Shown: one piece after another, positions 18,351-18,915 of the stretch
How positions within the stretch are numbered: the stretch's first letter is position 1
Layout: every line of letters starts with the position of its first letter
Source: Escherichia coli
Lineage (GTDB): Bacteria > Pseudomonadota > Gammaproteobacteria > Enterobacterales > Enterobacteriaceae
DNA: 64,000 nucleotides
Assembly: GCF_024502345.1 (NCBI RefSeq)
Contig: NZ_JALDNN010000001.1
Strand: one strand, 5' to 3'
Notes under the pieces: generated by a model
Databases searched by the model: none
What the model saw: the letters and a program-made list of their open reading frames with translations, nothing else
What the model was told of the DNA's origin: nothing
Translations under genes and position numbers: made by a program

Positions 18351-18727
18351 GAAGCTGACCAGACAGTCGCCGCTTCGTCGTCGTCCTCTTCGGGGGAGAC
18401 GGGCGGAGGGGAGGAAAGTCCGGGCTCCATAGGGCAGGGTGCCAGGTAACGCCTGGGGGGGAAACCCACGACCAGTGCAACAGAGAGCAAACCGCCGATG
18501 GCCCGCGCAAGCGGGATCAGGTAAGGGTGAAAGGGTGCGGTAAGAGCGCACCGCGCGGCTGGTAACAGTCCGTGGCACGGTAAACTCCACCCGGAGCAAG
18601 GCCAAATAGGGGTTCATAAGGTACGGCCCGTACTGAACCCGGGTAGGCTGCTTGAGCCAGTGAGCGATTGCTGGCCTAGATGAATGACTGTCCACGACAG
18701 AACCCGGCTTATCGGTCAGTTTCACCT
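18351..18727 (+). ncRNA. rnpB: RNase P RNA component (M1 RNA), 377 nt
   Basis: Plus strand reads GAAGCTGACCAGACAGTCGCCGCTTCGTCGTCGTCCTCTTCGGGGGAGACGGGCGGAGGGGAGGAAAGTCCGGGCTCC...CGGTCAGTTTCACCT, which I recognise as M1 RNA. Confidence 0.95.
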
Positions 18728-18915
18728 GTTTTACGTAAAAACCCGCTTCGGCGGGTTTTTGCTTTTGGAGGGGCAGAAAGATGAATGACTGTCCACGACA
18801 CTATACTCAAAAGAAAGCGGCTTATTGGTCAGTTTCACCTCTTTTAACGAAAACCCGGCAGCGTAAACTGGCGGGTTTTTGCTTTTTGGAGCATAGTGTA
18901 AGATGAATAAATATC
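18678..18915. repeat. Tandem repeats (about 100-120 bp) duplicating the rnpB 3' end and terminator
   Basis: agatgaatgactgtccacgaca...cggcttatcggtcagtttcacct occurs at ~18678 (inside rnpB), again at ~18779 (variant), with a third partial copy at ~18901; the second copy carries its own terminator-like hairpin (18852-18886). Confidence 0.75.
18738..18766 (+). terminator. Rho-independent terminator after rnpB
   Basis: cccgcttcggcggg hairpin followed by a T-tract. Confidence 0.7.

Follow-up and report, generated by a model that had tools for sequence, protein, structure and literature searches.

In the stretch of Escherichia coli DNA analysed here (64 kb; the window), garR, garK and rnpB follow each other on the plus strand and are faced by the convergent genes yhaC and yhaB on the minus strand. 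The rnpB gene, which bears the same name in matching RefSeq records, encodes a full-length type A RNase P RNA according to its RF00010 match, and is directly followed on its 3′ side by an array of repeats located before yhaC. This placement of rnpB, repeat and yhaC corresponds to the gene order of E. coli K-12 DH1, and the MG1655 RefSeq record carries no annotation between the two genes. The features of the locus are the following (window positions):

18351–18727, plus strand: rnpB, gene for RNase P RNA (M1 RNA) (Rfam RF00010, 318.6 bits, full-length model match)
18678–18727, plus strand: left part of copy 1, the native last 50 nt of M1 RNA, which is the repeat template (direct-repeat families; unit HMM 40.6 bits, without the insertion)
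18735–18762, plus strand: terminator T1 hairpin (MFE −19.4 kcal/mol, z −4.5)
18763–18778, plus strand: spacer between copy 1 and unit 2 (sequence read directly; SD-like GGAGGGG at 18767–18773)
18779–18900, plus strand: unit 2, the complete 122-bp extra copy (identical to copy 1 at 87 of 97 aligned positions; unit HMM 63.9 bits at 18778–18836)
18781–18906, plus strand: 41-codon ORF from the ATG of AGATGAAT (ORF list; judged non-coding)
18800–18818, plus strand: unit-specific segment, consisting of the 12-nt insertion ACTATACTCAAA and an altered P4 3′ strand (alignment of copy 1 and unit 2)
18846–18884, plus strand: terminator T2 hairpin of the long-loop type, followed by a U-run (MFE −23.2 kcal/mol, z −4.1)
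18901–18922, plus strand: stub, AGATGAATAAATATCTACGGTA, corresponding to the initial 22 nt of another unit and adjoining the AT-rich yhaC region (16 of 22 bases matching in register)
18955–20142, minus strand: yhaC, the convergent AT-rich gene that bounds the array (395-aa ORF; YhaC family protein in matching records)

The DNA of yhaC and yhaB (18955–20655, minus strand) has a GC content of 0.24–0.38, and this AT-rich neighbour is taken to be horizontally acquired; no Pfam domain was found in the products of yhaC (395 aa) or yhaB (163 aa). An AT-rich inverted repeat (ATAGACTTTGTAA / TTATTAAGTCTAT, 18929–18958) overlaps the yhaC stop codon; its minus-strand fold is weak (−6.5 kcal/mol, z −2.4), and the repeat could represent a yhaC-proximal terminator or a remnant. 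Just past yhaB lies a 322-aa ORF for an IS5-family transposase (20727–21695, minus strand; Pfam DDE_Tnp_1_5 and DDE_Tnp_1), which coincides with a GC step at about 20650–21750, on the side where the otherwise near-identical strain CFSAN018748 (L004), from which this ORF is missing, has tdcR. In the B2 strain APEC E18006 (L007, 2520–2800), yhaC and yhaB are present only as fragments, and the stub and the 3′ end of yhaC are kept.

The array unit is composed of the last ~50 nt of rnpB, an intrinsic terminator and a short spacer, and the window contains the proximal part of the array: the native copy is followed by a single complete extra unit and then by a stub of 22 nt. The native copy, including T1 and the spacer, extends over positions 18678–18778; from knowledge of type A structures and from the Rfam alignment, we take its left part to comprise J18/2, the P2 3′ strand, J2/4, the P4 3′ strand and the P1 3′ strand. 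Unit 2 begins with an M1-like left arm, which is separated by the insertion from a right arm that also resembles M1, and closes with terminator T2 and a spacer. The first-pass annotation of this DNA had proposed that the 3′ end of rnpB is tandemly duplicated, with starts near 18678, 18779 and 18901, and the repeat finder located all three exactly, with AGATGAATGACTGTCCACGACA found at 18678 and 18779 (100%) and again at 18901 (16/22). Two further families, one of 60 nt at 18687/18800 (77% identity, ungapped) and GGCGGGTTTTTGCTTTT at 18750/18870, were detected by the same program. The duplication itself is well supported by the gapped alignment of 18678–18778 with 18779–18900, in which 87 of 97 positions are identical and four indels occur, the 12-nt insertion among them: its score of 105 lies ~31 SD above that of 1000 shuffles (5.9 ± 3.1). 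The spacings between successive starts are 101 and 122 bp. Unit 2 differs from copy 1 in the 12-nt insertion after CCACGAC, whose sequence ACTATACTCAAAAGAAAGC is absent from M1, in the P4 3′ strand (AGAAAGC vs AGAACCC in copy 1), in a longer terminator loop and in a different spacer; the second copy is indeed diverged and carries a terminator-like hairpin of its own, as had been noted. Tandem Repeats Finder (minimum score 30) reported nothing at the array because the copies are too few and differ by indels.

The stub begins with an exact, in-phase AGATGAAT, and 8 of its next 14 bases match in register (P ~0.005); past 18922 there is no significant similarity to the rest of the unit, and a unit-profile search of the 64-kb window revealed no other unit remnant. 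The stub ends at the junction with the AT-rich yhaC region, which the repeat had correctly been said to abut. The same stub was present in all E. coli loci read, including those of single-copy strains (L003, L007), and two of these loci (L006, L130) carry AGATGAATGAATATCTACGG at its position, with a 17/22 match to the unit by our own reading. Since it occurs in strains without any extra unit, the stub represents a fixed distal edge of the array and not a fresh half-duplication. The earlier count of two and a half repeats downstream of the gene has therefore to be reduced: the third start is real, but it opens only the 22-nt stub behind a single full extra unit and, as copy 1 is the native end of rnpB, ~1.2 copies and not 2.5 lie downstream of the gene.

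Both T1 and T2 have the form of intrinsic (Rho-independent) terminators, a GC-rich stem-loop followed by UUUUUGCUUUU, and both fold more than 4 SD better than shuffled sequences. T1 consists of a CCCGC/GCGGG core with a UUCG loop and an A5/U5 extension, then GCUUUU, and figures among the natural terminators of a measured collection (PMC3643576). On the minus strand, T1 folds at −13.9 kcal/mol and is followed by UUUUUACG, and T2 folds at −18.7 kcal/mol. Because an A-run precedes each hairpin, the complementary strand also reads as a hairpin followed by a U-run, which suggests that T1 and T2 are shaped for bidirectional termination between the convergent rnpB and yhaC genes. A consensus terminator scan detected neither T1 nor T2, although both are clearly shown by folding; we suspect that the A/U extension of the stem uses up the T-run that such a scan looks for. 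The T2 hairpin resembles the T1 of E. whittamii and that of a divergent ‘E. coli’ lineage (L112, L046), and this likeness suggests that the long-loop form is the older Escherichia form.

The number of units is highly variable in E. coli. When a K-12 unit was used as query, 13,663 places were found in 5,398 E. coli genomes (range 1–9, mean ~2.5); among 60 evenly spaced rows of this result, one place per genome was found in 19, two in 16, three in 7, four in 14 and five in 4, and about one third of E. coli genomes are without an extra unit. The K-12 strain DH1 carries the native copy and three extra units of 113 bp (spacings 101, 113 and 113), the terminator of the last unit being split by a REP pair (BIME) that is followed by the stub and yhaC. 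Strain YL3 has the unit of the window together with a BIME, O104:H4 and HCP4S3_I4 have four extra units each, and the stub is retained in strain 201609 and in a B2 strain, both of which are without extra units. The allele of the window is not frequent: the same 1201-bp span was found in 3 of 60 spread rows, corresponding to a few per cent of genomes with this architecture, and over 401 nt the window is matched at 99% identity or more by 80 records. The array represents a length-polymorphic marker in E. coli.

Several mobile sequences are found at the array. A BIME interrupts the terminator of the last unit in K-12 and in many other strains (L001, 1990–2150; L002, 1780–1940; L005, 1700–2900; L006, 3180–4330), and in O104:H4 an IS621 element (IS110 family) lies inside the BIME. 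In HCP4S3_I4, ISKpn26 is inserted after the stub and yhaC is frameshifted. The window contains no BIME, IS621 or ISKpn26; in particular, it is without the REP/BIME palindromes (GCCGGATGCGGCG… / …GCCTGATAAGCG) that K-12, YL3 and other strains have at the corresponding position. In Citrobacter youngae CCUG 30791 (L037, L038), the array is divided between two contig ends. These repeats appear to break short-read assemblies, and this suggests that copy numbers from draft genomes are lower bounds.

The 3′ end of rnpB is in addition a recurrent landing site for a flagellin phase-variation islet, which was read in E. coli EH10-18-47, ECC-1470 and TUM1887 (L008, 2960–4700; L130, 20000–29100; L131, 20000–28500). 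In EH10-18-47 the integrase gene directly follows rnpB, and in ECC-1470 and TUM1887 an islet of ~9 kb lies between rnpB and T1. Its cargo comprises a tyrosine integrase (465 or 486 aa; the 486-aa protein of TUM1887 contains Pfam PF00589), a YagK/YfjJ protein, a Hin-like recombinase, flagellin and a flagellin repressor. The islet, whose junctions read …GGCTTATCGGTCAG|CTTCAACTTCTTC… and …TTTTTCCTGA|CTTATCGGTCAG|TTTCACCTG-T1, supplies rnpB with a new P1 3′ strand, CAGCTTCAAC. The junction was also found in at least nine further Enterobacterales species representatives (L011, L015, L032, L044, L047, L051, L069, L090, L120). PMC3378880 mentions a flagellar phase-variation islet, ‘flk’ (Orf486), with which this element is probably identical; rnpB was not found named as a target in the one TIGER/Islander paper searched (PMC7192596). 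An earlier suggestion that the repeat could act as a recombination element agrees with the range of one to nine copies among E. coli, with the BIME, IS621 and ISKpn26 insertions and with the islet at the rnpB 3′ end.

Units of this type are not confined to E. coli. Species-representative genomes were scanned with AGAAMSCGGCTTATYGGTCAG, which gave at least 120 loci; rnpB was located in them and the unit profile was searched downstream, the 89 Enterobacterales representatives with at least 200 nt of downstream sequence among the matches listed being counted. Extra units follow rnpB in at least 34 of these 89 species, with one unit in 17 species, two in 7, three in 6 and four in 4 among the matches listed. 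The positive genera, again among the matches listed, are Escherichia, Citrobacter, Enterobacter, Cedecea, Phytobacter, Lelliottia, Buttiauxella, Kosakonia, Atlantibacter, Pluralibacter, Raoultella, Pantoea, Erwinia and Izhakiella. The unit starts at the same base, (A)AGATGAATGACTGTCCAC, in most of them; this start is decayed in Izhakiella and in an uncultured Pantoea. A homologous insertion of 12–14 nt was present in nearly all extra units (~60 units from ~30 species, with one exception among the matches listed), and is followed by AAAGAA(A/C)GCGG instead of the ACAGAACCCGG of M1. The Rfam alignment, read with the standard structure, places this change in the strand of helix P4, which belongs to the ribozyme core. 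With the insertion and the changed P4 strand, a unit cannot replace the true 3′ end of M1, and the shared left boundary and the homologous insertion argue for one ancient origin of the units.

Some loci of this survey deserve separate mention. The exception is Atlantibacter sp. RC6 (L109), in which a unit without insertion lies at +48 to +94 after rnpB and is either a fresh duplicate or the product of conversion from rnpB. In unit 2 of Citrobacter sp. Awk 4 (L082), a MITE-like element of ~150 bp, bounded by terminal inverted repeats, stands in place of the terminator. Finally, the rnpB genes of Methylophilaceae and of another betaproteobacterial MAG (L022, L036, L085) bear a hairpin of 12–15 nt in J2/4, at the same position as the insertion of the enterobacterial units and unrelated to it in sequence.

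The segments of the unit are conserved to very different degrees. The mean pairwise identity of units from 27 species was 97% in the left arm, 91% in the AAAGAA/P4-like segment, 88% in the right arm, 65% in the insertion and 42% in the spacer after the right arm. The terminators and spacers, including the spacer type found at 18763–18778, vary between genera, yet those of one genome resemble its own T1: over the 45 nt that follow its P1 strand, a unit is 83% identical to the rnpB tail of the same species and 67% identical to those of other species. This comparison of sequences points to concerted evolution by unequal recombination, since unequal crossing-over in the long right-hand homology would account both for the likeness of unit tails to T1 and for the variation in copy number. 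Crossing-over is not obviously the cause of the high conservation of the left arm, which is only 18–21 bp long. Back-up termination needs no M1-like arms, and yet this arm is 97% conserved, which suggests gene conversion from rnpB or another constraint. In one MAG (L077) the units share the extra-A variant CCAACGAC of their own rnpB, so conversion from rnpB reaches the left arm; in some Erwiniaceae (L040, L098) this arm is decayed.

Altogether, we consider it likely that the locus carries an old, non-coding tandem array of variable copy number which is remodelled by unequal recombination and serves as a redundant bidirectional insulator, and that the copies are not attachment-site scars. Comparison of the arrays indicates that the extra units descend from one ancient duplicate of the rnpB end, in which J2/4 gained the 12–14 nt insertion and the P4 3′ strand was altered from C to G. 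It also indicates that units are added or removed by unequal homologous recombination within the right-hand homology (P1 3′ strand, terminator and spacer), and that the same recombination keeps the unit tails similar to the T1 of the host. A polymerase reading through T1 would meet in T2 a second strong hairpin-plus-U-run terminator and, given the A-runs and U-runs that flank both hairpins, transcription arriving from the convergent yhaC gene should also stop there. The array would in this manner insulate, redundantly and in both directions, a heavily transcribed stable-RNA gene from its AT-rich neighbour, and we infer that the provision of spare bidirectional terminators between rnpB and yhaC is its most likely role. 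The absence of extra units from about one third of E. coli and from most of the species sampled, among the matches listed, implies that any benefit is small or conditional. Of the two functions first suggested for the repeat, recombination is consistent with the one to nine copies, and insulation is plausible, in view of hairpins that look bidirectional.

The pattern of conservation could also be read as the mark of a conserved functional nucleic-acid element in which the M1-like arms and the insertion are under selection, either as a cis-acting RNA module in read-through transcripts or as a small RNA that ends at each terminator. Selection on such an element might act to prevent wrong pairing of M1 with the duplicated P1 and P2 strands, or to maintain the binding of a factor related to RNase P. 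This explanation, which we regard as unlikely, is favoured by the persistence of the units in at least 34 of 89 species and in many genera with the same boundary, among the matches listed, by the contrast of the left arm (97%) and the AAAGAA/P4-like segment (91%) with the insertion (65%) and the spacer (42%), and by the fact that only one of ~60 units among the matches listed (L109) is without the insertion. A 10-bp helix between the left and right arms was moreover proposed by RNAalifold from 27 units, but it shows zero covariation and reaches only −4.7 kcal/mol, and RNAalifold gave no conserved hairpin in the insertion, so that a hairpin read by hand in some genera was left unsupported. Searches of 18728–19000 with Rfam 15 yielded nothing at the gathering score beyond the RNaseP_bact_a match of rnpB itself, and a permissive search returned just sub-threshold terminator look-alikes (RsmY, rnk leader, STnc180). 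The loss of units in many lineages and in about one third of E. coli, and the decay of the left arm in some Erwiniaceae, also speak against selection, and the rnpB variant found in the L077 units indicates that conversion can explain the conservation. A conserved Enterobacterales element, be it an RNA module of T1 read-through transcripts that pairs its left arm with its right arm and so protects M1 folding, or a terminator-bounded small RNA that interacts with RNase P components, accordingly receives a low probability from us, and the current evidence favours redundancy and concerted evolution over a selected element. If the units were under selection, they would constitute a cis element not described before and connected with the biogenesis of RNase P RNA.

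It is very improbable that the units are genes for small basic peptides, whose translation would begin at the ATG of AGATGAAT, with the spacer upstream of it providing the GGAGG. In the window, GGAGGGG lies 9 nt upstream of the ATG at 18781 and opens a 41-aa ORF, and by our own reading the K-12 units give 38-aa ORFs that overlap from one unit to the next by an ATGA stop-start. Nevertheless, E. coli alleles differ in the frame and length of the C-terminal half (ORF of 41 aa in the window, 38 aa in K-12), the ATG frame closes after 9 codons in the units of Enterobacter Ag1 and Kosakonia (own reading), and the SD-like spacer is not conserved between genera. No novel ORF is given for the start positions of the K-12 units in one ribosome-profiling supplement; as reads from repeats map to multiple places, this negative is weak. 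A small-protein gene was rejected as an account of the unit, since the reading frame is not conserved among homologous units.

Equally remote is the idea that islands which enter site-specifically at the rnpB 3′ end, and carry a copy of it, were repeatedly gained and lost and left the copies behind as scars: a flagellin islet with a 486-aa tyrosine integrase does sit between rnpB and T1 in some E. coli, and its junction occurs in 31 of 5,426 E. coli genomes and in at least nine other species, in at least three of them at the end of the last extra unit, but the direct repeat that flanks it is only the 12-bp CTTATCGGTCAG, the island-side arm of attR (…TTTTTCCTGA) is unrelated to the left arm or insertion of the unit, the units are contiguous with their terminators and hold no island remnant between them, and no integrase lies between the copies in the window. 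An attachment-site duplicate was rejected after both islet junctions had been read, attR sharing only CTTATCGGTCAG with rnpB. In the one island family examined, no attP containing a AGATGAAT…insertion…GGTCAG unit was encountered.

The array can be compared with three known systems. Stable-RNA operons may end in tandem intrinsic terminators, as in the case of rrnB T1-T2. The locus studied here is similar in that two strong hairpin-plus-U-run terminators stand in series after a highly expressed stable-RNA gene. Unlike that of rrnB, the second terminator of rnpB arose by duplication of the gene's own end and carries 60 nt of gene-like sequence, and the number of such terminators varies between strains. 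Displaced 3′ gene fragments are known from genomic islands that target tRNA and tmRNA genes (the Islander concept, PMC4383910). Partial 3′ copies of a small RNA gene are likewise found downstream of the intact rnpB, and rnpB itself is used as an attachment site by the flagellin islet; in contrast to the Islander fragments, the rnpB units are arranged head-to-tail with no island between them, and the real att repeat is 12 bp long and includes neither the left arm nor the insertion of the unit.

The closest relatives are the repeats of K-12. Reed and Altman (PNAS, 1983) are reported to have described 113-bp repeats, ~3.5 copies, in the 3′ flank of the E. coli K-12 rnpB gene; none of the papers searched here describes the array. 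The claim that a repeat downstream of rnpB was already known for E. coli is in any case consistent with the three extra 113-bp units that K-12 DH1 has at the locus. Both arrays occupy the same locus, their units begin inside M1 with an identical start (AGATGAATGACTGTCCAC, ~50 nt before the M1 3′ end) and contain a terminator and an SD-ATG ORF each, and one profile matches the K-12 units (70 bits) and the unit of the window (64 bits). They differ in that the window has one extra unit vs three and periods of 101 and 122 bp vs 101 and 113 bp, an allelic difference, in the long-loop hairpin of T2 as opposed to the UUCG-loop copies of K-12, and in the last unit, which is without a BIME in the window. 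A feature of this kind is already known at this locus, and the strain of the window carries a short allele of it. For the window itself its importance is small; the allele is shorter than that of the repeat reported downstream of E. coli rnpB four decades ago. What the survey adds is that the array is common to many enterobacterial genera, in a form never able to replace the true rnpB end.
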